A DNA stretch of 64,000 bases from an uncultured Bacillales bacterium (GCA_905211645.1 CAJMBK010000001.1:155331-219330); one strand, 5' to 3'. Numbered from the stretch's first letter, positions 5,271-20,075 are shown. Numbers and translations: made by a program. The notes: generated by a model from the sequence alone, not told the origin.

Positions 5271-5313
5271 ATGAAAATGCCGTAACCATTCACTTTGGCT
5301 ACGGCAATTTTAA

Positions 5314-6186
5314 TTATTTAGTTTCTTCTGTGTTATTAGTTTCTGTATTTTCTGAAGTATTTTTGACTTCAACTTTTTCTGTTGAAGCGTTATCTAAAAC
5401 ATCTGGAGTTTCAGATTTGATTTCAACTGCTTGAGCTTCTTGAGTATTTTCGAGTTGCTTAACTTCTGGATTTTCGATTTGTTGAACAACTTCTTCGACA
5501 TCTGTAGGTTTGTTATCATCAACAATTTCAACTTTGGTGACTTCTTTTTTCTTGTTGAAGTATGCAAGATTTGAACCAATCTTGTCTTCTTTAACTAAGG
5601 TTTTAACAATCATACAGATTGATGGACCTAAGACAAGATTTAAGCAGAATTCGAGAATGAAGTTGACACCGATGAATGTTAAGAACAAGTATTGAACTGG
5701 GGTTTGACCTGCATCTTGACCACCACTTGATAATAAATTACCAAAGAATAATGCACAACCTGCTGCAAAGATTCCTGTATTAACAATTGGAGTGATGATA
5801 GCTGCTGCAAAACAAGCGGTTTTGAAGAATTTTTTATATAACAATTGGAAGACTAAGCCAGCGAGTGCACCTGCAACAGAAGTTTTAATTAAGCAGAGGA
5901 ATACAGTTGCCCATGCGTTGATAGGCATGAAGACTGACAAAGTAGATGGAGATAAAATAATAACGATACCTAAAACGAAACCTGTAATTGCACCGCCTGA
6001 AACACCATATAAAATTGATGCTAATACGAGTGGTACTAAGGCGAAGTTGAATGAAACACCACCAACTGATGGAGTGTAGTTAGCAATGACCTGTAAAACA
6101 ACTACGAGTGCGACTAAAACACTAATACCGCAGATTTTTCGAACTAATAAACTATTGTTGGACCTTGTCCTTAAAACACTATTCAT
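5314..6186 (-). CDS. ECF-transporter S-component-like membrane protein with an acidic low-complexity C-terminal tail
   Basis: About 200 aa core with 5-6 TM helices typical of an ECF substrate-capture subunit. Followed by about 80 aa of E/T/N/V-rich low complexity. Good RBS (AAGGAGA). Confidence 0.4.
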   Translation of the reverse strand: MNSVLRTRSNNSLLVRKICGISVLVALVVVLQVIANYTPSVGGVSFNFALVPLVLASILYGVSGGAITGFVLGIVIILSPSTLSVFMPINAWATVFLCLIKTSVAGALAGLVFQLLYKKFFKTACFAAAIITPIVNTGIFAAGCALFFGNLLSSGGQDAGQTPVQYLFLTFIGVNFILEFCLNLVLGPSICMIVKTLVKEDKIGSNLAYFNKKKEVTKVEIVDDNKPTDVEEVVQQIENPEVKQLENTQEAQAVEIKSETPDVLDNASTEKVEVKNTSENTETNNTEETK

Positions 6187-6279
6187 AATATTCTCCTTCT
6201 AAATAGCCGTAATATTATATCATTTTAAAATCCTAGGTCAAATTTTAGTTGACAGATTTTAAATGTGTAATCATTTTTA

Positions 6280-6306
6280 CGAAAAAAGACGGTTTTCACC
6301 GTCTTA
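6280..6306 (-). terminator. Intrinsic terminator (hairpin AAGACGG...CCGTCTT followed by a T-run on the minus strand)
   Basis: Inverted repeat 6286-6305. On the minus strand it is followed by TTTTTT. Sits at the end of the CNNM gene pair. Confidence 0.5.
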
Positions 6307-7629
6307 ATTGTCTTTTTTATCTTTCTGTTCATCTTCGCTCTTATCTTGTTTGACTAACAATTTCTTAACAGTCTTATGTTTACCAAGAGCGATGACTTTC
6401 ATGGTTAAATCTTTATAGTGGATTACATCGCCAACGCTAGCGAATCTATCATCAAGTAATTCAATGATAAAACCACCAACTGTGACATATTCTGTATCGA
6501 TTTCTTCATCATTAATATCGAATAAATCGAAGAAATCTTCAAGGTTCATACCACCATCGATGATATAACTACCATCTGATTTTTCGCTTACTGGATTATC
6601 AGGATCATCTGTTTCATCCCAGATTTCACCAACGATTTCTTCCAAAATATCTTCGATAGAAATTAAACCATCAGTGCCACCATATTCATCTAAGACGATA
6701 GCAATGTTTTGCTTTGTATCGTAGAATTGTTTTAAACAATCATTAATTTCAGTACTTCTTGGGATGAAAGTGATAGGTTGAATGATACTTTCAATTGATT
6801 CAGTTTTATTCTCTAACATCAATCTAACAATATCTTTACTTCTTACGAAACCGATAATGTTGTCGATATTTTCATCATAAACTGGAATTCTTGAATGTTG
6901 ATAAGTCTTAGAATTCTTACAAATTTCGTGAAGAGGTTTTGTTTTATCGATTGCATAAATCTTGGATCTAGGAGTCATGATTTCATAAGCTTCAGTTGAA
7001 GCGTAATCGATTGTGCCTCTTAAAAGTTCAGCTTTATCTTCATCGATAATACCTTTTTCTTCAATTTCATCGACCATTTCATGAAGTTCATCATCTTTAA
7101 TTTGGATGTCTTTCATGTAATGAACTAATGGGAAAGATAAGATATTTCCAAAACCACCAACGATGAAGGTGATTGGGATTGTGATGCAGTAACAAACAAG
7201 TAATGGCATTGAGAACCATCTTGTAAGTTTGTAGTTGTAAATTCTTCCAAGTGATTTAGAGATAATTTCACCGAAAGTAATCTTCAAGACAAGCATTGTC
7301 ATAGAAGCGGCTAAACCGAATATTTCTTGTGTATCAGGATCAGAATTAACACCTAAAGCTAATACACAGATTTGAATACCTAACAATGTTGAGAAGGTAT
7401 CAAGAGCAGCGTTAACTGTATCGTTGAAGAACAAGATACAAGAAATAGTTTTATCGTAGTTTTTCTCTAAGCTAATTGCTCTTTTCAAGGAACTGGATGG
7501 TCTAACTTTGTAGTCGTTCTGCATTTTATGCAATGAAGTACTACCGTAAGCCATGTCAGATGATGAGAAGAACATTGATAAGAAGAGCAAGACGATAAGG
7601 ATAATCACATATGTAATAACTAATTCCAT
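6304..7629 (-). CDS. CNNM/HlyC/CorC-family protein (DUF21 + CBS pair + CorC_HlyC transporter-associated domain)
   Basis: N-terminal TM DUF21, CBS region, and a C-terminal IEDILEEIVGEIWDE-type CorC domain. Likely start is the internal ATG at 7629 preceded by AGGAG; the track start at 7686 overlaps the upstream gene. Confidence 0.7.
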   Translation of the reverse strand: MELVITYVIILIVLLFLSMFFSSSDMAYGSTSLHKMQNDYKVRPSSSLKRAISLEKNYDKTISCILFFNDTVNAALDTFSTLLGIQICVLALGVNSDPDTQEIFGLAASMTMLVLKITFGEIISKSLGRIYNYKLTRWFSMPLLVCYCITIPITFIVGGFGNILSFPLVHYMKDIQIKDDELHEMVDEIEEKGIIDEDKAELLRGTIDYASTEAYEIMTPRSKIYAIDKTKPLHEICKNSKTYQHSRIPVYDENIDNIIGFVRSKDIVRLMLENKTESIESIIQPITFIPRSTEINDCLKQFYDTKQNIAIVLDEYGGTDGLISIEDILEEIVGEIWDETDDPDNPVSEKSDGSYIIDGGMNLEDFFDLFDINDEEIDTEYVTVGGFIIELLDDRFASVGDVIHYKDLTMKVIALGKHKTVKKLLVKQDKSEDEQKDKKDN

Positions 7630-7630
7630 A

Positions 7631-8752
7631 CTATTGATTCTCCTTTTGCAATTGAGGTGCTGCTGACTGTGCAAAGACTTGTTCACCGACTAATTCGTCG
7701 AGTAAGTCTTCCATGGTAATCATACCTACAACTTCATCTCGATCATTTTTAACAATAGCGATATGAACTTTTTCGCTGTTAAGTTGATCAAAAATGTCTG
7801 GGATTGAATCAGTTTCTTTAACGTAAATAGGTTGTGTTAAACAACTTCTGATATCCAAATGTGGGTCTTCTGTGAACTCTTTGAAGTAGCTATTAACGTT
7901 TAAAATACCGATAATGTTATCTTTGTCTTCAAAATAAACAGGGAATCTTGAGTAGACATTACTCATGATAAACTTGTTTAAAGAGTCAGTTGTTAATCCC
8001 TTTAAATCAATAGAAACAATCTTATCTTTTGGAGTTAAGATGTTTGAAATCTTGATTGAATCTAATGCGAATGCCCTTTTTAAGATGTTCAATTCATTAG
8101 GTTCAAATAATGATTCTTCTTTCTCGTTGATATTTTCATCATTGACTGCAGTATCTGCTTGTTCGATAAACTCTTCTTTAGTGAAGATGTTATCTTCTTT
8201 AATCTTGAAGATTTTATGAACAGCTTTAAGAATTAAACTGAAGATGTAAATAACTGGGAATAGTAAGTAGTAACAAATTATATCTGGCCAAGCAAGAATG
8301 TACGCCATTCTGTTTGGGAAAGTCTTCGACAGAATTTTAGGAACAGTGTCTGAAACAACATAAATCAAACATGCCATGATAATTGTTGAGATGATACCAA
8401 CAACTTCCTCTTGGTATGTGTTGATGAAAATGTTGTAGAACAAAACTGTAGAGAAGGTTGTCATCAAAGTTTGAACAATGTTGTTACCGACTAAAACAGT
8501 AATTAAAGTATTGTCAAATTTTTCAACTAACTTAACGATAATTTTCGCTGTTAGTTTACCTTCATCTGCGAGAACTTTAAAATGATATTTGTTACAGTTA
8601 CTAAAAGCATTTTCTGATGCACTGAAAACACCAGAAACAATCAATAAAATGGCAATAACGAGCCAGGCAGCCCAAGTAGGCATGCCATAAACGGTCTCAT
8701 TGACCTGTGTAGTATTACTTAAAAATAAATTAAAATTTGAGTACGGATCCAT
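7631..8752 (-). CDS. CNNM/HlyC-family protein (DUF21 + CBS pair, shorter paralog)
   Basis: Paralog of the downstream gene. TM DUF21 region plus CBS pair. Ends with MEDLLDELVGEQVF. Confidence 0.65.
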   Translation of the reverse strand: MDPYSNFNLFLSNTTQVNETVYGMPTWAAWLVIAILLIVSGVFSASENAFSNCNKYHFKVLADEGKLTAKIIVKLVEKFDNTLITVLVGNNIVQTLMTTFSTVLFYNIFINTYQEEVVGIISTIIMACLIYVVSDTVPKILSKTFPNRMAYILAWPDIICYYLLFPVIYIFSLILKAVHKIFKIKEDNIFTKEEFIEQADTAVNDENINEKEESLFEPNELNILKRAFALDSIKISNILTPKDKIVSIDLKGLTTDSLNKFIMSNVYSRFPVYFEDKDNIIGILNVNSYFKEFTEDPHLDIRSCLTQPIYVKETDSIPDIFDQLNSEKVHIAIVKNDRDEVVGMITMEDLLDELVGEQVFAQSAAPQLQKENQ

Positions 8753-8798
8753 ATTTAAAATAAATTTTGCAAAAATATTATCAAAAAATCAAGAATTA

Positions 8799-10079
8799 TT
8801 ATTTGACGTTTTTGGTCTTCCAAGCCTTAATGGCTTGCAATGATTCGTCATAAACTCTTTCTTTATCTTTCTTATTTGGTGAATATAAAATGCCGTAAGT
8901 TGCATTCATTGGAGCAAAATGTTTTGGACTTGTCATAACTAAGTAGTTAACTAAAGAACCTAACATTGTGTTAAGTGGAATGTAACCTGGCTCTTTTCCT
9001 TCTAAGTAATCTCTAACATAGAAGCTGACAAGTAAACCCATTGCTGCAGATTCAACATAACCTTCAACACCTGATAATTGACCGGCTAAAAAGATGTTAG
9101 GTTTTGCTTTCAAAGAAAGATTTCTATTTAAAACAGCTGGTGCATTAACACATGTGTTTTTATGCATTAAACCAAATCTAGCAAATTTAACATTTTCTAA
9201 ACCTGGAAGAGAAGTGATCAATTCCTTTTGCGCTTGATAGGTTAAATTTGTTTGGAAACCAACCATGTTATACAAAGTTTTAGCAGCATCATCCTGTCTT
9301 AATTGGATAACGGCAAAGACATCTTTATCTTCTGTGATTCCTTTTGGAGACATTGGACCAAATCTAAGTGTGTTTGGACCTCTTGAAGCAATAACTTCAA
9401 TTGGTAAACAACCTTCAAAATGGGAGTTATCATGTGTCATAACTTTTGGAGATGACAATAATTTATCAACAAAATCAAAGTATTGATCTTTATTTAAAAG
9501 GATATTCAAGTAGTTTGAGTTTTCGTCACCAACTTTGTATTTACTACCTTTAACCATTTTTGAAGTATCCATGGTTGAAGCGAATAATAGTGGTGAAGCA
9601 GCATCAAAGAATGAGAAAAATGAATTTCCAATAACTGACATCAATGAATTACTTAAAGCAGAACTGGTTAATGGACCAGTTGCTAAAATTGTGGGTTCAT
9701 CAGTTAACTCAGTGTATTCTTTAGAGATAATCTTGATGTTAGGATTATTTTTAATTTTCTCAGTGATATAACCGGAAAACTTTTCTCTATCGACAACTAA
9801 GTCATCACTTCCTTCAATTCGAGCAAAATTAGCAGCTTCCATGAATAAAGAACCAAGAGATTCCATTTCAGACTTTAAAAGTCCTGAAGCATTTGTTTTC
9901 AAATAGGATTTGAAAGAGTTTGAGCAAACTAATTCTGCTAATAAATCTTTAGAAGATTGAGCCTCATTCATTGAATCAGGCTTTGTATCATATAAATGAA
10001 CTTCATAACCAAGTTTAGCAAGTTGATAACTTGCTTCACAACCTGCTAAACCAGCTCCAATAACATTAATTTTCTTCAT
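8799..10079 (-). CDS. trmFO: Methylenetetrahydrofolate--tRNA-(uracil54-C5)-methyltransferase TrmFO (Gid)
   Basis: N-terminal FAD Rossmann motif MKKINVIGAGLAGCEASYQLA. Conserved position downstream of topA. Confidence 0.9.
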   Translation of the reverse strand: MKKINVIGAGLAGCEASYQLAKLGYEVHLYDTKPDSMNEAQSSKDLLAELVCSNSFKSYLKTNASGLLKSEMESLGSLFMEAANFARIEGSDDLVVDREKFSGYITEKIKNNPNIKIISKEYTELTDEPTILATGPLTSSALSNSLMSVIGNSFFSFFDAASPLLFASTMDTSKMVKGSKYKVGDENSNYLNILLNKDQYFDFVDKLLSSPKVMTHDNSHFEGCLPIEVIASRGPNTLRFGPMSPKGITEDKDVFAVIQLRQDDAAKTLYNMVGFQTNLTYQAQKELITSLPGLENVKFARFGLMHKNTCVNAPAVLNRNLSLKAKPNIFLAGQLSGVEGYVESAAMGLLVSFYVRDYLEGKEPGYIPLNTMLGSLVNYLVMTSPKHFAPMNATYGILYSPNKKDKERVYDESLQAIKAWKTKNVK

Positions 10080-12234
10080 CTTCTTCTTTCTTTTGTGGCT
10101 TCAAGCTTTCAGTGTAATCACACTCTGGGAAGTTTGAGCAAGCGAGGAATGAGATACGACCTTTCTTAGTGTGTTTAACGATCATATGACCTTTACCACA
10201 CTTAGGACAAATTCTACCACCTTCTACTTGAGGTTTTTCATTGCCTTCGATGTATCTACATTTAGGGAAATTATCGCAAGCGACAAATTCACCTCTATTT
10301 GAATGTTTGACAACTAAACGACCGCCACATTTTGGACAGACTTTACCTTCAACATATTCTTTTTCTTTCTTTTCAATGTATTTACATTGTGGGAAGCCAG
10401 AACATGCGACAAACATACCGTATTTAGAATGTTTTTCAATTAAAGGTCTTCCACACATTGGGCAAAGTCTACCGACTTCTTTATCTTTAATCTTCTCCAT
10501 ATTTTGCAATGCATTTTCATACATTGGGAAGAATTCATCACAAAAGTCCTTCAAAAGTTTATTTCTTGAAGAGTCACCAGCAACAACATGATCCAAATCG
10601 GATTCCATGCTTGCTGTGTATGATGCAGAGATGAATTTAGGGAAGAATTCAGATAATTTTTCAACTGTTAAGATACCTTGTTCTGTTGGAGTTAAAGTAC
10701 CTTTTGAAACATCAGCGTATTTTCTATCTTCCAATGTTGCGATTGTAGAAGCATAAGTTGAAGGTCTTCCAATACCATTCTCTTCCATCAAACGGACAAT
10801 TCTACCTTCAGTATATCTAAGTGGTGGCTTAGTGAAATGTTGAGTAGGAATTGTCTTATCGAGTTCAATTTCTGAACCGATAGTTAAATTAGGTAATTCG
10901 CTATCCTTTTGATATGTTTCATAATCACCATAAACTTTGGAATAACCATCGAAAACGTTCTTGTAAGCTTTTGCTTCAAATAGATAACCGTTTCCTTCCA
11001 AGGTTAAAGTTGTGACATCATCTTCTTTATTTGACATCAAAGATGATAAGGCACGTGCATAAATCAACTTATATAATGCTAATTCATCTTTTGTTAAGAA
11101 AGGTTTCAAAACTTCAGGTGTTAGAGATAAATCTGTAGGTCTGATAGCTTCGTGACCATCTTGGATATTCTTACTAGATTTTTCTTTATGGATCTTACCT
11201 AAATATTTTTCACCGTAGTTATCTAAGATATATTGATTTGCTGATTCAACAAATTCTGGAGAAAGTCTTTCAGAGTCGGTACGCATGTAGGTAATTAAAC
11301 CTTTGAATGTGCCATCAATCTCCTTTCCTTCATAAAGATGTTGAGCAATTAAAGCAGTCTTCTTGGTTGAAAAATGATATTGAGAGAATGCTGCTTGTTG
11401 CATTGTTGATGTAGTAAAAGGCGATTTCGATTTACTTTTAACTCGCTTAGTTTCCAAATCTTTAACTTTGAATTCTTTAGGAAGAGCAGCAATGATTGAT
11501 TCCATTTCTGCTTGAGAACCAATCTTTTGCTTGTTTACGTCTTCTTCAGATTTGTTGGTAGTTTCAATTTCTCTATCAACAAATTTGATTTCCTTTTCAG
11601 AGTCCTTATATCCTTTTAATGTAGCAACAACTTTTTCATCGTTGAAGAGACCAGCAAGAGTCCAGTATTCTTCACTTTGGAAGGCTTGGATTTCTTTTTC
11701 TCTATCAACTAAGAATTTAAGTGTAACGGATTGAACTCTACCTGCGGAACGGGATTTAATCTTGGAGTGAAGCAATGTAGATAATTTGAAACCGATGATT
11801 CTGTCAATAATTCTTCTTGTTTCTTGGCTAGCAACAAGATTCATATCGATAGTTCTTGGATTCTCCATTGCTTTCAAGATTGCAGATTTGGTAACTTCAT
11901 GGAATTCAAGACGCTTAGTTGTATCAATAGGTAAACCTAAAACTTCAGCGATGTGCCATGAAATAGCCTCACCTTCTCTATCAGGGTCGGTTGCAAGAAT
12001 GACTTCGTCAGCATTTGCCATTGCTTTCTTAAGTTTCTTAACAACGTCTTTTTTATCAGCAGGAATTACATAATTAGCTTTAAAATTATTTTCAATATCG
12101 ACACCGAGACCACCTTTACCAGTTGTAGCTAAATCTCTAATATGACCAAGAGAAGCTTCAACTTGATAATCAGATCCTAATATTTGAGATATTGTATGAG
12201 TTTTTGTTGGAGACTCGACGATAATTAACTTCAT
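10066..12234 (-). CDS. topA: DNA topoisomerase I
   Basis: Toprim N-terminus (MKLIIVESPTK), active-site region, three C-terminal C4 zinc-ribbon repeats. Confidence 0.95.
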   Translation of the reverse strand: MKLIIVESPTKTHTISQILGSDYQVEASLGHIRDLATTGKGGLGVDIENNFKANYVIPADKKDVVKKLKKAMANADEVILATDPDREGEAISWHIAEVLGLPIDTTKRLEFHEVTKSAILKAMENPRTIDMNLVASQETRRIIDRIIGFKLSTLLHSKIKSRSAGRVQSVTLKFLVDREKEIQAFQSEEYWTLAGLFNDEKVVATLKGYKDSEKEIKFVDREIETTNKSEEDVNKQKIGSQAEMESIIAALPKEFKVKDLETKRVKSKSKSPFTTSTMQQAAFSQYHFSTKKTALIAQHLYEGKEIDGTFKGLITYMRTDSERLSPEFVESANQYILDNYGEKYLGKIHKEKSSKNIQDGHEAIRPTDLSLTPEVLKPFLTKDELALYKLIYARALSSLMSNKEDDVTTLTLEGNGYLFEAKAYKNVFDGYSKVYGDYETYQKDSELPNLTIGSEIELDKTIPTQHFTKPPLRYTEGRIVRLMEENGIGRPSTYASTIATLEDRKYADVSKGTLTPTEQGILTVEKLSEFFPKFISASYTASMESDLDHVVAGDSSRNKLLKDFCDEFFPMYENALQNMEKIKDKEVGRLCPMCGRPLIEKHSKYGMFVACSGFPQCKYIEKKEKEYVEGKVCPKCGGRLVVKHSNRGEFVACDNFPKCRYIEGNEKPQVEGGRICPKCGKGHMIVKHTKKGRISFLACSNFPECDYTESLKPQKKEEDEEN

Positions 12235-12342
12235 AATATTAATACCTCTTTTCGCATTGATTATTATTGATAATCGGTGTCAAATGTCAAGCAAAAATAA
12301 TTTCGCTTTTCCTTTATTCTATATTATATAGAATAAGAAAAT

Positions 12343-13167
12343 TTACTCGATTTCGGCTAGATATTCCTTTTTATCAAATTTCTTTGGAAGTAAGTTTTTG
12401 ATGTCTTTTGCAGAGTTGATTAGATAGGCTCCGTCTTTAATTGCGTTGTTAGTTAATTGGAAATCATCCACTCTTTGAGGAAGGCAACAGATTGTTTTAC
12501 CCATCTGCAATGCATAGCGTAAAGTGATACTTGTTCCAGACTTATCCTTTGCTTCTGGGATGAAAATTAAGTCAGCCATAGCAGCGATAATTCTATTTCG
12601 TGGTGGGAAATGTTCTGCTAATGGTTCAACCATGCAAGGATATTCGGAAACAACTAAACCTTTTCCAGATGAGCAGTACTCATAAATATCTTTAGAATTA
12701 TTAGGATAATAACGATCGATTCCATTTCCCATAACTGCAATTGTAGGTTTATTGTATTTCATTGCGAGTCTGTGAGCGATTGAGTCAATACCATAAGCCA
12801 TACCGGAAACAATGACGATATTATCAATTGTTTTAATAAGCTCCTCTAAAAAATCCTCAGTGTACTTTGTTGAGTAGTGATTTGGATTTCGAGTACCTAC
12901 AACTGAGACTCTTATATATTTATCAGATAATAGGTCTTTATTTCCGTAATAGAAAAGCGCAATAGGAGGTTGAGGAGTCTCCCTGAAGTAATCTGGATAC
13001 TCTCTTTCTCCAATTACAATGCACGGTGTTTTGCACTGGATGTTGCATTCATTGAGCTCCTCATCAGTGAATCTTTTCTTTTCCTTAATAATAGCGAACT
13101 CGGTATTCCAGTCCCCTTTTCCGTAGTAAGCTACATTTCTTAATAATGTTTGTCTATCAATAACCAT
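12343..13167 (-). CDS. dprA: DNA-processing protein DprA (Smf), short form
   Basis: Rossmann-like DprA core. Conserved topA-dprA-rnhB-rbgA neighbourhood. Confidence 0.8.
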   Translation of the reverse strand: MVIDRQTLLRNVAYYGKGDWNTEFAIIKEKKRFTDEELNECNIQCKTPCIVIGEREYPDYFRETPQPPIALFYYGNKDLLSDKYIRVSVVGTRNPNHYSTKYTEDFLEELIKTIDNIVIVSGMAYGIDSIAHRLAMKYNKPTIAVMGNGIDRYYPNNSKDIYEYCSSGKGLVVSEYPCMVEPLAEHFPPRNRIIAAMADLIFIPEAKDKSGTSITLRYALQMGKTICCLPQRVDDFQLTNNAIKDGAYLINSAKDIKNLLPKKFDKKEYLAEIE

Positions 13168-13220
13168 AAATTATTTCTCCTTTCACCCTATATATCGCAT
13201 GAGAGAAGAAAAAATTTAAA

Positions 13221-13892
13221 TTAAATTTCAAAAATATTAAATTTTTTTACCGGAGTGAAAGTTTTTCTATGTTCACCTTCGATAATTCCATATTCTTCGA
13301 TGGCTTCAAGATGCTTTTTAGTTCCATATCCTTTATTATTCTTGAAATCGTATTGAGGATATTTCTTATCAAGTTCAATCATGTATCTATCCCTTGAAAC
13401 TTTGGCTAGTATTGATGCGCATGCAACAGAAAAACTTGTTGCGTCACCTTTTGGAATAGAAATAAGTTCGACATCCCCAGTATTTATTTTCATGTAATCG
13501 GTGATTGCAGTTTTAATTTGATGTTTACTTAATAATTCGTTGAATGCAATTTGCATTCCTTTTCTACTTGATTCAAGGATGTTGATTTCGTCAATTTCAT
13601 CAGCAGAAATCTTTATTATTTTATAATCAATAGCATTTTCTATAATTAGATTGAATAGATAGTCTCTTTCTGCTTCAGTTAATTTTTTACTGTCATTAAT
13701 TAATCCGTTATGAAAATCTGGTTTCATGATTACTCCAGCACAAAATACTGGGCCACAAAGTGGACCTCGACCTGCTTCATCAGCCCCAAAGATTAAATCA
13801 TTTTTATCATCACGAAAACTGTCATCAAACTCGTTGAGTTTGGTGGCAACATTCATAGCTGATTTTATCTTTTCTTCAAGGTGTTTAGTCAT
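13221..13892 (-). CDS. rnhB: Ribonuclease HII
   Basis: Active-site motif GADEAGRGPLCGPV. Confidence 0.9.
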   Translation of the reverse strand: MTKHLEEKIKSAMNVATKLNEFDDSFRDDKNDLIFGADEAGRGPLCGPVFCAGVIMKPDFHNGLINDSKKLTEAERDYLFNLIIENAIDYKIIKISADEIDEINILESSRKGMQIAFNELLSKHQIKTAITDYMKINTGDVELISIPKGDATSFSVACASILAKVSRDRYMIELDKKYPQYDFKNNKGYGTKKHLEAIEEYGIIEGEHRKTFTPVKKFNIFEI

Positions 13893-14754
13893 CGAGATAG
13901 ATTGGTCCTAACAAACCGTTTTGGAAATCTTTGTAGATCATCATCTTGACTCTATCATAGTCGATAATATTACCTTTAGTTAAAATATTTCTTGAAGTTC
14001 CAACTTTTTCAAGTAATTCTAAAGTTGTTTCAAAATCACCGATATTATACTTTGATTTTGTAGCTTCATAATGGTTGTTTTTAATGATTTCAAATAAGTA
14101 ATCAAAGAGTTCATCAAAAGGTAAAACATCGAGTTTAACTGAGCCTAATAAGGCTAAGTTCATGATGACTTTTTTATCTTTATAATTAGGTTCCAAAATT
14201 CCAGGAGTATCGAAAACTTCTACACGTTTTGTGACTTTAAAAAGTGTTGTGGTTCTTGTTTTACCTGGTTTATTTTCAACTTGGGCTCTCTTCTTTTTGA
14301 AAAGATTATTAATCAATGTTGATTTACCAACATTTGGAATACCAACGATTGCAAAAGCAGCTGGTGGTAGTGGAAAATTATGCTTTAAGTATTTCTCATC
14401 TTGAGGGAATCTCAAAGTTTCCAAGTAGTCTAAAAGGACTTGGCTTGAATTATTTTTATTTAAATCTAATGCCAAATATTTAACGTTTTCCTTGGTGTTT
14501 TCTTGGATAAATTTATTAACTTTATTTTTATCAGCTAAATCAATCTTAGAAAGAATGTAGATAATTCTGGAAACATTGCTCTTTTGGAAGATGGAATGTA
14601 AACCTTCAGGAAATGATGATTCTGGACTTCTTGCGTCCAAAATAACGATGATTCCTTGGCAGGTTTTAACGATATTTTCCATCTGGTTAAGAGCTTTTTT
14701 CATATGACCAGGGAAGTACTGAAAGTTTTTAATGTTGTTATTTTTATTTTCCAT
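13885..14754 (-). CDS. rbgA: Ribosome biogenesis GTPase A (YlqF/RbgA)
   Basis: Circularly permuted GTPase. FPGHMKKA near the N-terminus. G1 GIPNVGKSTLIN. Confidence 0.85.
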   Translation of the reverse strand: MENKNNNIKNFQYFPGHMKKALNQMENIVKTCQGIIVILDARSPESSFPEGLHSIFQKSNVSRIIYILSKIDLADKNKVNKFIQENTKENVKYLALDLNKNNSSQVLLDYLETLRFPQDEKYLKHNFPLPPAAFAIVGIPNVGKSTLINNLFKKKRAQVENKPGKTRTTTLFKVTKRVEVFDTPGILEPNYKDKKVIMNLALLGSVKLDVLPFDELFDYLFEIIKNNHYEATKSKYNIGDFETTLELLEKVGTSRNILTKGNIIDYDRVKMMIYKDFQNGLLGPIYLDD

Positions 14755-14756
14755 TT

Positions 14757-16937
14757 TTAGTCCTCAGAATATACAATTTGGAAATATGGGTCGTAGTCAT
14801 GACGTGATTCTTCATGCTTGTCAGGATTTGTTTGAAGTAAGACAAGAGCAGAGCTATTAATCTTTCTTGGTGTAGCAACTTTATCGAATTTAACGTAGCA
14901 GAAATTACCATCTGTAGATAGAACTTTACCTTGACCAAGAAGTCTTGAAAGAACGATGTCTCCTTCTTGGAACAAATTTAATGCCATCGTTTTATCACCA
15001 ATTTTTACAATAGGTGCTGAAACTTGTGGATATGTGACAATTTTATCGAAAACTTCTGAAATAAATGGTGAAGCATCATTGCAGGTGTGGTTATTCGCAT
15101 CATGGTATGAAGAATAATAGAAAGATAAAGTATCTTGTGCTCTTGTGATGGTGACAAAAGCTAATCTTCTTTCTTCCTCTTGTGCTTCATCGGTTACTGC
15201 GTGAACGGATGGGAATAATTTATTGTTAAATTCATAAACAATAACGTGTCTGTATTCCAAACCTTTTGATGAGTGCGAAGTGATGAGTTTGACAGATTCC
15301 TTTTTCTCATCGATGTAGAAATCGTGGATAATTGCGATGGAATTTAAGAAAGTTTGCAAATCTTTAACTTCTTCAGCATGTTCTTTTTCCTGTTGAGTGA
15401 CAGAAGATAATAAGAAATAGTAGTTAGTTAATCTTTCTTCGTTGTTGATATCTCTTAAATCTGCTTCGTAACCTGATTCTTTAAAAGCCATATTCAAAAG
15501 TTCACTAACCTTCTTTGTTGGTATGGAAAGTTTGATCTTTTTGATAAGTTCGATAAAGACCTGTATGGTAATTGAACGGAATTGTCTATCATTTCTTAAT
15601 GAATCAAGAGCTTGAAATTCGGAAATATTGTACTTTTTAGCGTATTCACTAAGCATTTCCATACGTTTTTCACCGATTCCAAGGGAACGGTTTGAAAAAA
15701 TGTATTTTAAAGCGATGTTATCATCGTAAAGAGCAACTCTTAAATAGGATAAAACCAATTTAATTTCGACTCTATCGTAGAATGAAGTTCCTTTAACAAC
15801 TTTGTAAGGAATTCCCCACTTAACTAAACTTGGCTCAATCTGTTGAGAAAGTTTGTTGGAGCGATATAAAATAGCAACGTCGTTGTAATTCTTCTTTTCG
15901 TCAACGTAGGATTTAATTTCTTCAACAATCTTTTTATTTTCTTCTTCGATATCTTTACAGATAAAAAGTTTAACTGGTGTACCAAGAGTACCACGTTTAG
16001 ATTTTAAATTCTTCTTGATTCTGTTTGAGTTATTCTTAATAAGTTTATTTGCAACATCGATAATTTCTTTTCCTGAACGGTAGTTGACATTAAGTGTCAT
16101 CGTCTGTAAATCTTTAACGTTATTTTCAAGGTGAACTAAGAGATTTACATTGCTTCCGTTGAAGGAGTAGATTGCTTGATCAGGGTCACCAACAACGAAT
16201 AAGTTGTTGTAATATTCACTCAAACATTTGATGATTGTGAATTGAGTGTCAGTGACATCCTGGAATTCATCAACCATGATGTATGTATAAAGCTTCGCAG
16301 TTTCATTTCTAACTTTAGAGTTAGTTTCCAAGATAAAAATCGTGAAAAGAATTAAATCATCAAAAGTTAAGCATTGATTTTCCCTTTGATAATCTAAAAG
16401 AATTTGAATGTATCTTTCAGGAAAATCGATATATGTTGGTTTATTTTTAGCAGTGATGTATGTGATGTAATCACTTCTATTATTTTTCTTAAAACTAGAT
16501 ATTTTTTTCATCATCTCTGCTAAGGAGATGTTTCTTGCTTGGTCATTATTAAGTGATCTTCTAATTTTTCTTAATAATGAATGATAGTCATTTTCATCAA
16601 CGATTGAAAATCCTGGATTGAATCTTAAAGTGAAAATATTATTTTTTAAAAACTTTGCACAGAAAGAGTGAATGGTGCAGATATTTGGGAAGGTATCGTT
16701 GGTATTTAAAAGATAACGAACACGTTTAGCCATTTCTTGAGCGGCTTTATTTGTGTAAGTGATACATAAAATATCCTTTGGATCGATACCACCAAAGTTG
16801 ACAAGATATGCAAAACGGTATGTTAAAGTTCTAGTTTTACCAGTTCCAGCACCGGCTAAAACCCTGATATTGCCTTCAGTTGTTTTGCAAATTTCTTGTT
16901 GCTCGGCATTTAAATCGTTTAAGAATGAATTTTCCAT
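14757..16937 (-). CDS. UvrD/Rep-family ATP-dependent DNA helicase (second UvrD-like paralog, distinct from pcrA)
   Basis: Walker A AGAGTGKTRTLTYR. UvrD helicase motifs throughout. About 120 aa C-terminal extension with no recognisable motif. Confidence 0.8.
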   Translation of the reverse strand: MENSFLNDLNAEQQEICKTTEGNIRVLAGAGTGKTRTLTYRFAYLVNFGGIDPKDILCITYTNKAAQEMAKRVRYLLNTNDTFPNICTIHSFCAKFLKNNIFTLRFNPGFSIVDENDYHSLLRKIRRSLNNDQARNISLAEMMKKISSFKKNNRSDYITYITAKNKPTYIDFPERYIQILLDYQRENQCLTFDDLILFTIFILETNSKVRNETAKLYTYIMVDEFQDVTDTQFTIIKCLSEYYNNLFVVGDPDQAIYSFNGSNVNLLVHLENNVKDLQTMTLNVNYRSGKEIIDVANKLIKNNSNRIKKNLKSKRGTLGTPVKLFICKDIEEENKKIVEEIKSYVDEKKNYNDVAILYRSNKLSQQIEPSLVKWGIPYKVVKGTSFYDRVEIKLVLSYLRVALYDDNIALKYIFSNRSLGIGEKRMEMLSEYAKKYNISEFQALDSLRNDRQFRSITIQVFIELIKKIKLSIPTKKVSELLNMAFKESGYEADLRDINNEERLTNYYFLLSSVTQQEKEHAEEVKDLQTFLNSIAIIHDFYIDEKKESVKLITSHSSKGLEYRHVIVYEFNNKLFPSVHAVTDEAQEEERRLAFVTITRAQDTLSFYYSSYHDANNHTCNDASPFISEVFDKIVTYPQVSAPIVKIGDKTMALNLFQEGDIVLSRLLGQGKVLSTDGNFCYVKFDKVATPRKINSSALVLLQTNPDKHEESRHDYDPYFQIVYSED

Positions 16938-17036: not shown

Positions 17037-17062
17037 AAGTGCCTTTCTATCGGCACTTAAAT
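17037..17062 (-). terminator. Intrinsic terminator (minus strand) closing copy 1 of the repeated DUF4926 module
   Basis: Hairpin AGTGCC...GGCACT followed on the minus strand by TTTTTCTTTT. Confidence 0.45.
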
Positions 17063-17070
17063 GTCTATTA

Positions 17071-17290
17071 TAATGCCTACATACTTCGCTTTTGATACAT
17101 TGCACACCCTTACAACGGCAAGCAACGGCGCAAATTTAATGTAGCCAAATTATGGATTATTATGCCTAATAAGTTCTATCTCATTTAACTCATATGTAAC
17201 TACATCGATTGGATAATGTTTTGGCTAGGCTGACCACTACTATAAAAAACAATACATACGCTGTGTGGCGATTGAATAGCCTTCGTTCTC
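17071..17290. repeat. Repeat A copy 1 (about 220 bp, roughly 85-90% identical to 19052-19270)
   Basis: Direct alignment read from the sequence (TAATGCCTACATACTTCGCTTTTGATACAT...CTTCGTTCT). Contains decayed 3' coding remnants of a DUF4926-like gene. Confidence 0.8.
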
Positions 17291-17329
17291 AACTAGCGTT
17301 TTCACTAAATCATATTCTTCAAAATGCAT
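17150..17329 (-). pseudogene. Decayed DUF4926-like gene (copy 1): intact RBS + ATG, then frameshift/premature stop
   Basis: Minus-strand translation from ATG 17329 gives MHFEEYDLVKTLVENEGYS...*. This resembles the N-termini of the intact paralogs (MKIQERDIVRTLVNKEGF / MEKLKEFDSVITLVNKNNI). A further out-of-frame piece YPIDVVTYELNEIELIRHNNP* resembles the C-terminus YPVDVVTYKFDELEVIERTNE. Confidence 0.5.
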
Positions 17330-17344
17330 ATTTTATCTCCTTTT

Positions 17345-17514
17345 ATTTTAAATAATTTGTTATTAATCTTGGAATTGTTTTACCTTTATCAATTTGATAA
17401 ACAACGACAACTTTTAAAAAAAATAATCTATTTATCTATCACTAAAAACAAATAATGTTTGAACATCCCTAGATAAGTTCTAAGGATGTATCAAACATGT
17501 TGTTCTCATATGGC
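17345..17514. repeat. Repeat B copy 1 (about 170 bp, roughly 85% identical to 19827-19988, the region immediately 3' of tRNA-Ser)
   Basis: Alignment ...CTTGGAATTGTTTT..TTTGATAAACAACGACAACTTTTAAAAA...GTATCAAACATGTTGTTCTCATATGGC. Both copies end in the same TGGC, which in copy 2 is the tRNA CCA end. Confidence 0.8.
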
Positions 17515-17553
17515 AATAAATACCAATTGTGATGCACTTGCGCCCCCCACTAC

Positions 17554-18609
17554 TTACCATGTTTTTATTAAATCATACAAATAAGAATTTTTATAAATTA
17601 TTTCTTTGCCAACTTTTTCCTCAATTAAAATTCCAATTTTAGATAATGAATGTAAATACTTTGATGCCGTATTTCTACTAATATTAAGGTTATTTCTTAA
17701 ATACTCATTTTTTGTATAAAAATCATAAAACAAATAATCAATTAATTCTTGTGAATAAATTTTTGGTAGTTTTTCTATAACAATATTCTTTGCATTGTTT
17801 ATACAGTTAAGCATCTTATTAATAAAATTAATTGTGTATTGACTCATTTCATTTACTGCTTTTAGCATGTAAATAATATATTTTTTATAATTGCTTAAGT
17901 CTTTTTGCATCATATTTAAAAGATCATAATATTCCTTTTTATGTGCATTAATATATTTACTTAGATATAAGATTGGTATGTTTATTTTATGTTCCAAAAC
18001 TAAATACAAAATGTTTAATATTCTACCTACTCTTCCATTACCATCATGAAATGGATGGATTGATTCAAATTGAAAATGAATCAATCCCATTTTAATTAAA
18101 GGATCAGCATTTTCTAATTCAGGATAATTAATATATTTTTCTAAATTGGATAAATATTCCCTTATTTTTGATTCATTTTGTGGTGGAGTATGTAATATCT
18201 CATTAGTTTTTGTATTTAATATAACTGTGCCAGGAATTTTTCTAATGTCTCCAACACTAGGTTCAATTATTCTATGTATTTCAACTAACATATTTGTTGA
18301 GATGAATCCATTATCATTTAATAGTTTAAATCCATGTAAAATAGCTTGCCTATAATTAACTACTTCTTTTGATGAGGCATCTTTTGTTTTTAAAGTTATT
18401 TCTTTAAAAATACGGTCGTAAGTCGTAACTATATTTTCAATCTCACTAGATTCTTTAGCTTCACCTAAAATGACAGCATTTAAAATAATATTTGGGTTTG
18501 GCAAAGCTTTTACTAATCCATTAAGCTCACCAATTTTATTATTAGCATTAGATAAAGCTTTTAAGATATCGATATCATCTAGATTTAAATCAAATGGTAA
18601 TTTGTGCAT
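17554..18609 (-). CDS. Fic-family protein (Fido domain, probable AMP-transferase) with an N-terminal inhibitory motif
   Basis: Canonical Fic motif HPFHDGNGRVGRIL. Upstream SxxxEN-type inhibitory helix motif (SSEIEN) in the same polypeptide, i.e. class II arrangement. Very AT-rich codon usage. Confidence 0.9.
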   Translation of the reverse strand: MHKLPFDLNLDDIDILKALSNANNKIGELNGLVKALPNPNIILNAVILGEAKESSEIENIVTTYDRIFKEITLKTKDASSKEVVNYRQAILHGFKLLNDNGFISTNMLVEIHRIIEPSVGDIRKIPGTVILNTKTNEILHTPPQNESKIREYLSNLEKYINYPELENADPLIKMGLIHFQFESIHPFHDGNGRVGRILNILYLVLEHKINIPILYLSKYINAHKKEYYDLLNMMQKDLSNYKKYIIYMLKAVNEMSQYTINFINKMLNCINNAKNIVIEKLPKIYSQELIDYLFYDFYTKNEYLRNNLNISRNTASKYLHSLSKIGILIEEKVGKEIIYKNSYLYDLIKTW

Positions 18610-18775
18610 ATTATAGCCTCGTGCTTAAATTTTATCATTTTTTGTGCACATTATCAATTCGTGCTTAAATAAGATAAAAAATAAGTAGTTTCAAGAATTA
18701 GTATTGATAATATAGTAAAAAATAAATGTATTAAAATTAAAAACTATAATCTTAATAGAGGAAAATATATAAAAA

Positions 18776-18865
18776 ATCATAATATTCTTTTTAATTTGCA
18801 TTAATATGTTTGCTTAGATATAAGATTGGTATGTTTATTTTATGTTCCAAAACTATATACAAAAA
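18776..18865 (-). pseudogene. About 90 bp fragment of a Fic gene (roughly 90% identical to 17923-18010, inside the intact Fic CDS) in the intergenic AT-rich region
   Basis: Direct sequence alignment. The minus-strand translation ILYLSKHINAN* matches Fic ILYLSKYINAHKKEYYD and then stops. Confidence 0.6.
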
Positions 18866-18994
18866 TTTAAAAAGTGTTACAATCTTAGAATTTTTTGAAA
18901 TTCTAACACTTTTTATTATTTATTATGTTTAGTTATTATTTATAAAAGTTTTCGCACAGTAAATTTCATCATAATAAGAATATTTAAATAATAA

Positions 18995-19047
18995 TCACCA
19001 TTTTGCTATAAAAAAAGATTGATACCTAATTGTGTCAATCTTTGGTT
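18995..19047 (-). terminator. Intrinsic terminator (minus strand) closing copy 2 of the DUF4926 module
   Basis: Hairpin AAGATTGACACA..GGTATCAATCTT followed by TTTTTTT on the minus strand. Confidence 0.5.
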
Positions 19048-19051
19048 ACTC

Positions 19052-19270
19052 TAATGCCTACATACTTCGCTTTTGATACATTTCACACACTTACAATGGC
19101 AAGCAACGGCGCAAATTTAATGTAGCCAAATTATGGATTATTATGTTTAATAAGTTCTATCTCATTTAACTTATATGAAAGTACATTAATTGGATAATGT
19201 TTTGGCTCGACTAAACCACTACTAAAAAAATACATACCCTGTGTGACGATTGGATAGTCTTCGTTCTGAA
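19052..19270. repeat. Repeat A copy 2
   Basis: See repeat A copy 1. Confidence 0.8.
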
Positions 19271-19274
19271 ACAT
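19130..19274 (-). pseudogene. Decayed DUF4926-like gene remnant (copy 2, third gene of the array)
   Basis: MFQNEDYPIVTQGMYFF* and the out-of-frame piece YPINVLSYKLNEIELIKHNNP* are both homologous to the remnant in copy 1 and to the intact paralogs. Confidence 0.45.
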
Positions 19275-19320
19275 TATTTTACAAAAACGTACTCTCTAAA
19301 ATTTTAGTAGTCGATAAACT

Positions 19321-19521
19321 TCATTCATTTGTTCGTTCGATAACTTCTAATTCATCAAATTTATAGGTAACAACATCAACTGGATAATTCGTTTCATCCC
19401 AAATTTCAACTTCGCAAACAGGAAAACCTGTATAAATCGAAACTACAACGCCTTCGCTTCCTTTCGCAAATCCTTCTTTATTTACTAATGTTCTTACAAT
19501 GTCTCTTTCTTGAATCTTCAT
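19321..19521 (-). CDS. Small DUF4926-like protein (66 aa)
   Basis: MKIQERDIVRTLVNKEGFAKGSEGVVVSIYTG...EVEIWDETNYPVDVVTYKFDELEVI matches my memory of the DUF4926 pattern (D-V-V-x-L-x-x-d-l-P-e-x-G-L-k-x-G-x-x-G-T-V-V, then Y-E-V-E-F). Paralog of 19610-19810. Confidence 0.5.
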   Translation of the reverse strand: MKIQERDIVRTLVNKEGFAKGSEGVVVSIYTGFPVCEVEIWDETNYPVDVVTYKFDELEVIERTNE

Positions 19522-19609
19522 CTTATTAATTTTTCTTATTAGTATAGTTAAATATCAATATAGGTGTATTTATACTTAGTGCTTTCTTCATTTATCTCCA
19601 CTTTTGCGA

Positions 19610-19810
19610 TTAATCTTTGACATCATACTTTTGAATTTCATTTTCATCGTAGTCATAAACACCTATAGTATTATAGTTTTTATCAAATAATTCACATGTA
19701 TAAGCATTAAAGTCAGTATAAACGTGAACAATACAACCAATTGTTCCTTTTGGTATATTGTTTTTATTAACTAATGTGATTACTGAATCAAATTCTTTTA
19801 GTTTTTCCAT
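19610..19810 (-). CDS. Small DUF4926-like protein (66 aa)
   Basis: MEKLKEFDSVITLVNKNNIPKGTIGCIVHVYTD...TCELFDKNYNTIGVYDYDENEI. Strong RBS (AGGAGA) 8 nt upstream of the ATG. Confidence 0.5.
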   Translation of the reverse strand: MEKLKEFDSVITLVNKNNIPKGTIGCIVHVYTDFNAYTCELFDKNYNTIGVYDYDENEIQKYDVKD

Positions 19811-19826
19811 TTTTTATAATCTCCTA

Positions 19827-19988
19827 TTTTAAATAATTCGTTATTATTCTTGGAATTGTTTTGTCTTTATCTTTTTGATAAACAACGACAACTTTTAAAA
19901 ATGTCCTATTTCTCTCTAAAACAAAAAATGTTTGTACACCCATAGAATAAGTTCTAAGAATGTATCAAACATGTTGTTCTCATATGGC
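19827..19988. repeat. Repeat B copy 2 (leader of the DUF4926 genes, abutting the tRNA-Ser 3' end)
   Basis: See repeat B copy 1. Confidence 0.8.
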
Positions 19989-20075
19989 GGAGTAAGAGAG
20001 GTTCGAACTCTCGCACACCTTACGGTGTCTACGTACTTAGCAGGCACGCCTCTTCACCAACTTGAGTATTACTCC
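19985..20075 (-). tRNA. tRNA-Ser (anticodon GCT), 91 nt, CCA encoded
   Basis: Reverse complement GGAGTAATACTCAAGTTGGTGAAGAGGCGTGCCTGCTAAGTACGTAGACACCGTAAGGTGTGCGAGAGTTCGAACCTCTCTTACTCCGCCA. 7-bp acceptor stem, D arm, anticodon loop CTGCTAA, long variable arm, T arm GTTCGAACC. Confidence 0.85.

Follow-up and report, generated by a model that had tools for sequence, protein, structure and literature searches.

A strain-variable, decaying array of DUF4926-like genes beside a tRNA-Ser gene in an uncultured Bacillales bacterium, probably made up of orphan immunity genes

A stretch of 64,000 nucleotides from an uncultured Bacillales bacterium (GCA_905211645.1, CAJMBK010000001.1:155331-219330; hereafter the window, with positions counted from its first nucleotide) holds four copies of a small gene between a tRNA gene and a run of housekeeping genes, with a fic gene among them. 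An earlier note, made from the sequence alone, had described these copies as DUF4926-like paralogues in rapid birth and death and, given the fic gene next to them, as typical of immunity/antitoxin-like or phage-facing gene sets. The question raised by the locus is what the small proteins acted with, and why some copies have stayed intact while others have decayed. The answer proposed here, which is held to be probable, is that orphan immunity (antitoxin) genes of the DUF4926 family form a strain-specific array here that is in decay, 'orphan' being defined within the 64-kb window.

The islet and its four small genes

The window has a GC content of 33%, and all features of the locus lie on its minus strand. 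A tRNA-Ser(GCT) gene (19985-20075; ARAGORN; Rfam tRNA, 53 bits) anchors the islet, which starts just 3' of it. The 3' flank of the tRNA, here named X (19923-19984), contains a terminator-like hairpin and T-run, judged by eye; repeat search and alignment placed a second copy of X at 17455-17514, with a 42-nt core that is 98% identical. X is followed by a 39-aa ORF (19824-19943), inside which sits a 3' stub of a putative DUF6883 (BECR-Tox3) toxin gene (19821-19922; approximately 23-34 of approximately 147 codons; tblastn and blastn), and then by a tandem of three DUF4926-like copies: c3 (19610-19810), an intact gene of 66 aa with an AGGAG ribosome-binding site, c2 (19321-19521), also intact at 66 aa and with no clear Shine-Dalgarno sequence upstream, and the c0/c1-type pseudogene psi-c1 (19131-19302). 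Behind psi-c1 lies T (19047-19130), a conserved non-coding tail of 85 nt found by repeat search after c1-type genes and kept in the loci L016, L019, L034, and L044 of relatives, and beyond it a hairpin and T-run at approximately 19005-19045. Next come a 107-nt piece of another copy of fic (18765-18871), which duplicates 17912-18018 at 90-92% identity (repeat search, blastn) and is embedded in AT-rich DNA, and the complete fic gene (17554-18609; 351 aa). The second copy of X then precedes a second DUF6883 3' stub (17346-17411; tblastn), the fourth paralogue psi-c0 (17150-17329), which lies 2 kb from the tandem, its tail T' (17062-17149), and an intrinsic terminator (17037-17058; terminator scan). 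Past the terminator, the housekeeping genes encode a UvrD-like helicase, then a GTPase (MMR_HSR1), RNase HII, a DprA-family protein, topoisomerase I, and a GIDA-family protein.

Nucleotide alignments and tblastn bore out the claim of four paralogues, all of which lie on the minus strand and align at both the DNA and the protein level. With c2 as the tblastn query, the window yielded c3 (E=2e-8) as well as the regions of c0 (E=1e-8) and c1 (E=3e-4), and the two remnants are 86-92% identical to each other in nucleotide sequence. Two copies are intact (c2 and c3) and two are pseudogenes (psi-c1 and psi-c0), as had been counted. The proposed rapid birth and death stood in its second half only: death is ongoing, but the paralogues are old, c2 and c3 being 34% identical.

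DUF4926 (PF16277) was the sole Pfam family found for c2 and c3, save for a negligible NUMOD1 match in c3 (E=0.44). The profile was matched over its full length by c3 (24.3 bits, E=2e-5) and c2 (19.1 bits, E=9e-4), both under its gathering score of 29.1 bits and thus short of membership by threshold. Bona fide members were reached transitively, since PF16277 is annotated on the close homologues P0009, P0023, P0026, and P0028-30, and P0137, which was retrieved by the c2/c3 profile, scores 46.6 bits on DUF4926, above the gathering score. The family named in the earlier note is therefore retained, with c2 and c3 appearing as a divergent DUF4926 subfamily. A profile built from c2 and c3 retrieved 33 clusters formed at 90% identity and, in a search of 1.8 billion proteins, 289 representatives of clusters formed at 50% identity (E<=1e-3).

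c2 and c3 are real genes under purifying selection. Among c2 orthologue pairs, dN/dS (Nei-Gojobori) came to 0.06-0.17, except against L006, where it was 0.36-0.44; the values were 0.07-0.13 in c3 and 0.11-0.13 in intact genes of the c0/c1 type. Because most of the orthologues compared come from loci that still carry the toxin gene, the orphan copies may not be subject to this constraint. The sole orphan-to-orphan comparison, that of c2 in the window with c2 in L014, rests on 4 substitutions, of which 3 are synonymous and 1 is non-synonymous.

An AF2 model of c2 (mean pLDDT 93), computed from a 21-sequence alignment, the alignments used for folding being small, is a five-stranded SH3/KOW-like barrel, which agrees at the level of the fold with the SH3-like barrel that had been expected. 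Foldseek matched it to KOW domains of NusG/Spt5 and to Pif1 SH3-like, CPH, and Tudor domains at TM of approximately 0.7, with structural E-values that were all weak (2.5e-3 or worse). A PDB sequence search with the c2/c3 profile gave no match. Most likely, c2 and c3 still make SH3-like barrels of approximately 7.5 kDa.

The DUF6883 partner in relatives and its stubs in the window

The setting of the orthologues points to a partner. In 13 metagenomic loci (L001-L013), all of them fetched for c2- or c3-type orthologues, a DUF6883 gene lies directly upstream, abutting or overlapping the DUF4926-like gene, and is usually preceded by a DUF4417 gene and by a pair of genes for an XRE-HTH protein and an M78 (ImmA/IrrE) peptidase. 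The usual operon in relatives thus reads XRE - ImmA/IrrE peptidase - DUF4417 - DUF6883 - DUF4926, and in some of them two or three different DUF4926 genes stand behind one DUF6883. L044 and L045 have the order DUF4417 - DUF6883 - c3 - fourth paralogue - decayed c2/c0 hybrid - T, with a c3 orthologue that equals c3 of the window at 63 of 66 residues, and L016 has DUF6883 - c2 - intact c1-type gene - T, so that c2 and c3 each have orthologues paired with the toxin gene or in an array behind one. Among GTDB species representatives, a DUF6883 ORF was found upstream in 11 of 18 loci, and all eight of the upstream ORFs scanned exceeded the DUF6883 Pfam gathering score; the taxa are uncultured Bacilli/Firmicutes, Clostridia, Lachnospiraceae, Oscillospiraceae, Eggerthellaceae, and Coriobacteriales, with rumen, gut, and faecal MAGs included. 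Across Bacilli, Clostridia, and Coriobacteriia the two genes overlap or are separated by 11-13 nt, and in P0038 DUF6883 and DUF4926 form a single ORF. A few loci were orphan, as in L026, where by eye the DUF4926-like gene lies behind a putative large serine recombinase.

In the window this partner is reduced to its last codons. When the DUF6883 proteins of L001, L006, and L010 were used as tblastn queries, only 19922-19821 and 17411-17346 were hit (E=4e-8 and 4e-6), in each case by the last 22-34 residues; the latter stub is 86% identical over 22 aa to the C-terminus of L010 DUF6883, and blastn homology with L010 and L044 starts within the final 69 nt of the DUF6883 gene in each. No other DUF6883 gene sequence was detected by tblastn anywhere in the 64-kb window. 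An intact DUF6883 gene with a DUF4926 gene directly downstream, as seen in the relatives above, is accordingly absent from it. The predicted toxin genes of the window have been cut to stubs without most of the domain, and c2 and c3 would therefore be orphan immunity or antitoxin genes. These stubs form a fifth class of remnant at the locus, which the earlier note had missed.

DUF6883 has been described as a new RNase family, BECR-Tox3, with MuF fusions and with a conserved downstream DUF4926 gene as its likely immunity gene (preprint 10.64898/2026.08.28.747851). That immunity assignment is a neighbourhood inference made in a single 2026 preprint (10.64898/2026.08.28.747851). An AF2 model of one DUF6883 protein, P0235 (mean pLDDT 82; 99 of 147 residues at pLDDT >=90), whose gene adjoins a near-identical c3, has a disordered, Gly-rich segment at residues 1-30 followed by three helices and a four-stranded sheet. 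Its top four PDB matches in Foldseek are all chains of 6CP9 (E 1.1e-5 to 4e-5; approximately 110 aligned columns, 20% sequence identity), and the next PDB match has E=1.4e-2. The entry 6CP9 is the contact-dependent inhibition (CDI) toxin-immunity complex of Klebsiella pneumoniae 342, the toxin of which we take to be a BECR-fold tRNase. This match supports, but does not prove, the prediction that DUF6883 acts as an RNase toxin. The 6CP9 chains were absent from the top 50 PDB matches of the c2 model. In the DUF6883 proteins of relatives, no recognisable secretion or delivery domain accompanies DUF6883, which is joined to the disordered Gly-rich N-terminus only.

Fic was rejected as the partner. 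The protein encoded at 17554-18609 is a full-length, stand-alone SoFic, matching PADLOC SoFic PDLC03963 over residues 3-348 (E=1e-97) and made up of Fic_N, Fic, and SoFic-like C-terminal Pfam domains, and the partner in relatives is DUF6883. In sister strains fic stays beside c0, with a DUF6883 stub between the two, and nothing was found that links Fic and the DUF4926-like proteins functionally. Of the immunity- or antitoxin-like set next to Fic, then, the immunity-like role of c2 and c3 is kept as the best reading and the tie to Fic is dropped; SoFic marks the site as a defence/conflict islet.

Strain variability and the decay of two copies

The locus is a strain-variable islet beside tRNA-Ser. 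Sister strains of the same species (L034-L043), with flanks 98.4-98.7% identical over 8.3 kb, match the window from 19961 onward and diverge below 19961, where the region is hypervariable. The c1-c3 array is absent at this site in L034 and L035, which carry other cargo instead (fic, an IS30-like gene, a GIY-YIG gene, an HI_0787_N gene, and a gene for a 76-aa repeat protein); in L037-L039 and L043 the tRNA and the fic fragment are just approximately 430 nt apart, and L040 is the same as the window. Outside these strains, L014 and L015 hold c2 and psi-c1 (92% nucleotide identity) beside a nitroreductase gene, in flanking DNA that is unrelated, and L019 holds DUF4417, two unknown genes, a truncated DUF6883, and a hybrid c2/c0 gene of a kind also present in L044.

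A classic integrase-mediated island at a tRNA gene was considered and rejected. Of the tRNA, the direct repeat formed by the X cores (19947-19988 and 17473-17514) takes in just 4 nt; the DNA between the two copies (17515-19946) holds no integrase gene, and the homology runs on past the 42 nt. Exchange between repeated cassettes, by homologous recombination or gene conversion, would fit these sequences better.

The lesions of psi-c1 were listed against the intact alleles of L034 and L016. A 16-nt deletion took its original Shine-Dalgarno sequence and start codon, and further indels of -1, +1, -7, -17, and -1 nt follow. The remnant had been said to end at an ATG at 19274; this is an internal, fortuitous start without a ribosome-binding site, and the homology reaches approximately 19302. 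The statement that both remnants keep a ribosome-binding site and ATG consequently holds for psi-c0 (AGGAG, ATG) and fails for psi-c1. Most of the psi-c1 lesions are common to the L014 copy, and L014 and L015 have the same lesions, so that the pseudogene predates the split from that lineage and was, by this comparison, already dead in the common ancestor with L014.

The history of psi-c0 is different in kind. Intact 66-aa alleles occupy its site in L034, L035, and L036 (and an intact c1-type gene is present in L016). Translation placed the N- and C-terminal parts of psi-c0 in one frame, with a net indel of -21 nt relative to the intact sister-strain allele, and the earlier placing of its C-terminus in another frame was not upheld. 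Its middle is disrupted by indels of +1, -3, -1, -17, and -1 nt and by three in-frame TAG stops. Identity to the two possible sources alternates along the copy. Segment 17345-17286 equals the intact L034 allele at 60/60 positions and psi-c1 of the window at 31/43; segment 17285-17218 agrees with L034 at 51/67 and with L014 psi-c1 at 64/68, and has the +1, -3, and -17 indels of psi-c1; segment 17217-17132 returns to L034 (86/86, against 79/86 for psi-c1 of the window); and segment 17131-17062 of T' agrees with T' of L034 at 53/70 and with T of the window at 63/70. The simplest reading is that psi-c0 and T' are a mosaic, in which two short gene-conversion tracts (tract 1, 17218-17285; tract 2, 17062-17131) were copied from the psi-c1/T unit into c0/T'. 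These identities indicate that tract 1, and not independent mutation, probably destroyed c0, and did so recently; the high identity of the two T copies of the window would be due to tract 2. The reverse course, in which L034 was repaired rather than c0 of the window converted, is unlikely, since the allele is intact on three sister contigs and these have no donor copy at the locus.

The T tail was also examined in its own right. It matched no Rfam family and gave no covariation, and an RNA gene was rejected on these grounds; a small ORF was rejected as well, the 23-aa ORF on the plus strand having no ATG in L034.

Explanations of the locus and its likeness to known systems

In relatives, each paralogue type stands directly behind an intact DUF6883 gene or in an array behind one. 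In the proposed history, deletion or recombination in the lineage of the window would have removed the toxin genes and left 3' stubs of approximately 70-100 nt. The c2 and c3 proteins would bind and block cognate DUF6883 RNases, with toxins arriving from elsewhere in the genome, from kin strains, or from mobile elements or phages, and the two genes may be retained as protection against them. Different paralogues may reflect different toxin specificities, because c3-type, c2-type, and c0-type genes sit behind different DUF6883 variants in relatives. Copies without such use would decay, psi-c1 first, before the split from the L014 lineage, and psi-c0 recently, when a psi-c1 tract of 68-82 nt with its frame-breaking indels would have been copied in by gene conversion.

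Whether c2 and c3 protect at present is the point on which a neutral account differs from this one: they may be not-yet-decayed remains of deleted toxin-antitoxin cassettes, of no present benefit and heading for loss. Such a course, which we regard as unlikely, would account for a locus in which half of the four copies have already died, no toxin gene is left, c2 lacks a clear ribosome-binding site, and the c1-c3 array is missing from sister strains with nearly identical flanks. Against it, c2 is intact in two toxin-less lineages (the window and L014/L015) that differ by the 4 substitutions given above, the adjoining psi-c1 gained many lesions over the same time, and the 90% cluster of c2 has 26 members, some of them 66-aa forms on contigs up to 306 kb. 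Benefit of a more specific kind is a rather doubtful proposal: c2 and c3 might be an active defence layer beside SoFic, neutralising DUF6883-type RNase effectors injected as MuF-fused polyvalent proteins by phages or conjugative elements, with the paralogues covering different effector variants. If true, this would be an 'immunity-gene-as-antiphage-defence' system in a tRNA-linked defence islet.

That the proteins have nothing to do with immunity, and are SH3/KOW-like nucleic-acid- or protein-binding factors (regulators or phage-type accessory proteins) merely travelling with DUF6883, we consider very improbable. The structural matches of c2 are of this sort, small SH3-like phage proteins match weakly in BFVD, and the annotation of an Enterococcus phage places a lone DUF4926 gene in the replication region (PMC12590732); those matches are weak, however, and the fold is generic. 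The tight coupling 3' of DUF6883 across three bacterial classes, the fused ORF, and the several divergent paralogues behind one toxin would fit immunity specificity better than regulation, which the XRE/ImmA pair already provides in the cassette. That the ORFs are spurious and the remnants chance similarity in AT-rich DNA may be set aside as refuted. The ORFs are short, the genome is low in GC, and the Pfam scores fall under the gathering threshold, but they have homologues in many taxa, purifying selection, and a confident fold, and both pseudogenes, whose mutual identity was given above, have intact alleles elsewhere. The check for homologues and conservation on which the earlier note had made its ORFs depend is answered by the same clusters and dN/dS values.

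The orphan immunity genes preferred here resemble the DUF6883/DUF4926 pairs of the preprint (10.64898/2026.08.28.747851), with which the relatives of the locus share both families, the order of toxin then DUF4926, and a BECR-type, CdiA-CT-like fold of the toxin model. The window differs in that the toxin is present as 3' stubs and the immunity genes stand alone as four diverged paralogues, its proteins belong to a divergent subfamily under the Pfam DUF4926 threshold, and the cassette of this subfamily has XRE, M78 peptidase, and DUF4417 genes and not a MuF fusion. Strings of non-identical immunity genes without effectors are known from the type VI secretion (T6SS) clusters of Vibrio cholerae, where they vary between strains and where one step of the proposed model is an insertion that pushes the old effector's 3' end backwards (Kirchberger et al. 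2017, PMC5361080). The window shares with such orphan arrays a tandem of non-identical immunity paralogues (c3, c2, psi-c1) without a cognate toxin within 64 kb, retained toxin 3' fragments, and strain variability, and L019, with a new two-gene module behind DUF4417 and the old DUF6883 truncated, resembles the insertion step. In contrast to the V. cholerae arrays, no secretion apparatus or delivery domain is evident here: the ORFs scanned at 3282-16937 and 17554-18609 included no secretion genes, all being housekeeping genes or SoFic, and no trafficking domain was seen in the DUF6883 proteins of relatives. The array also lies in a tRNA-adjacent islet and not at the end of a secretion cluster, belongs to a low-GC gut host of Gram-positive type, and is shrinking, not growing.

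In firmicutes, tandem immunity paralogues of type VII secretion systems (T7SS), esaG and tipC, recombine to give hybrids, losses, and expansions (Garrett et al. 2022, PMC9484751). The hybrid c2/c0 genes of L019 and L044 and the putative conversion tract in c0 of the window are alike in kind; the families are unrelated, however (DUF600 in EsaG, a DUF4926 barrel here), there is no T7SS context, and the exchange here would carry a pseudogene lesion into an intact gene. The CdiA-CT/CdiI pair of K. pneumoniae 342 (6CP9) matches the DUF6883 partner best in structure, and CDI loci also contain orphan modules of toxin tip and immunity gene; the differences are the 20% sequence identity, the absence of CdiA and CdiB, and the free-standing form of DUF6883, at 127-178 aa. 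Type II toxin-antitoxin systems, among which solitary antitoxins are known, likewise have translationally coupled genes for a toxin and its neutraliser on mobile or variable DNA. Here the toxin comes first, separate XRE/ImmA regulators and an extra DUF4417 gene are part of the cassette, and the neutraliser has no DNA-binding domain, neither Pfam nor the AF2 model having placed an HTH, RHH, or AbrB domain in the 66-aa barrel. In place of a DNA-binding, autoregulating antitoxin, regulation in relatives is apparently by the XRE and M78 pair.

Since orphan immunity arrays are known already and the toxin-immunity pair was recently proposed, the locus is an ordinary one that will not surprise a specialist in conflict systems. 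Its value lies in independent genomic and structural support for the DUF6883-DUF4926 assignment, which so far rested on one preprint, and in suggesting that arrays of orphan immunity genes, familiar mainly from T6SS, T7SS, and CDI, also arise in uncultured low-GC gut bacteria around a small RNase module that is free-standing. The gene conversion from a pseudogene is a neat by-product, being an apparent base-pair record of a dead paralogue killing a live one. The DUF4417-anchored cassettes may constitute an undescribed polymorphic toxin platform.

Two further possibilities were examined and rejected. A phage origin found no backing in IMG/VR, which contained no relatives, in PHROG and PADLOC, which had no family for the DUF4926-like or DUF6883 proteins, or in BFVD, where weak, generic SH3-like matches were the only ones. 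An alternative genetic code was suggested by public gene calls of 79-84 aa, which read TGA as Trp. These calls are a gene-calling artefact: with code 11 the long genes of the window are intact, and in the L044 hybrid three in-frame stops stand in place of Gly, Trp, and Glu, which makes it a pseudogene.

Hybrid genes and gene calls in the DUF4926 family

Hybrid DUF4926-like genes, in which the 5' part resembles the intact 66-aa gene c2 (19321-19521, minus strand) and the 3' end resembles c0, occur in other genomes at about 1790-1990 of locus L044 and at 2350-2610 of locus L019, and are represented by proteins P0021 and P0022. The L044 copy carries three nonsense codons. Inter-paralogue recombination, together with decay of the last member of the array, is therefore recurrent across the family. 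Public calls of c2 orthologues (P0002, P0003, P0005, P0006, P0008, and P0010-12) run to 76-84 aa and read a TGA stop codon as Trp (code 4). The long genes of the window are intact under code 11, and the extended calls are a gene-caller artefact on low-GC contigs.

Repeated elements and the fic gene

The non-coding tail T (85 nt) is conserved 3' of c1-type DUF4926 genes in several species. Copies are located at 19047-19130 and 17066-17149 of the window, at 1081-1161 of L016, and at about 2560-2640 of L019, 590-665 of L034, and 1976-2056 of L044. Every copy ends at a terminator, which differs from copy to copy. The tail had no match in Rfam, a search for covariation found none, and a 23-aa plus-strand ORF within it was not conserved.

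The X repeat, a hairpin with a T-run that may anchor recombination when cassettes are exchanged, lies just 3' of tRNA-Ser at 19925-19988. A second copy (17455-17514) directly follows the fic stop codon, and the two copies share 42 nt at 98% identity, a stretch that takes in the final 4 nt of the tRNA. X is present at the tRNA of the sister strains in a diverged form, and X-like sequence was also seen 3' of T in L016 (about 1165-1215) and in L019.

The fic gene itself (17554-18609, minus strand) belongs to the SoFic type of defence genes and is full-length (PADLOC E=1e-97). An internal piece of 107 nt (17912-18018) recurs with 90-92% identity at 18765-18871, a distance of 850 nt, and this duplicate is apparently the scar of a second fic copy. 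Both sister-strain loci, L034 and L035, carry an IS30-like HTH_38 gene between the fic gene and the fic fragment.

Variable cargo and DUF4417 cassettes

At the site equivalent to about 19060-19960 of the window, the tRNA-Ser cargo of L034 and L035 (4291-6342) differs from that of the window and comprises a LEM-3-like GIY-YIG protein, an HI_0787_N protein, and a 76-79-aa protein of five G-x-K-L-Y-K/R-x-G repeats; it could be another conflict module. The L034 sequence left of T', the tail following the pseudogene psi-c0, encodes an HTH-acetyltransferase and had no match in the window, where the left border lies at 17074. In its place the window has a second UvrD-like helicase gene (14757-16937, 726 aa), and the left limit of the variable region may lie beyond that of the DUF4926/fic islet.

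Among relatives, translation of the predicted toxin gene is coupled to that of the DUF4417 gene upstream of it (cassettes of L001, L010, and L044; L019 274-2505). In L019, DUF4417 is followed by two uncharacterised genes (127 and 126 aa) and a truncated DUF6883, and a Gly-rich 'MG..G..G' leader opens both the 127-aa protein and DUF6883 proteins. The coupling, this gene order, and the common leader suggest that exchangeable toxin-immunity modules are anchored by a constant DUF4417 gene. A match to a PHROG with a nuclease annotation was also obtained for DUF4417.
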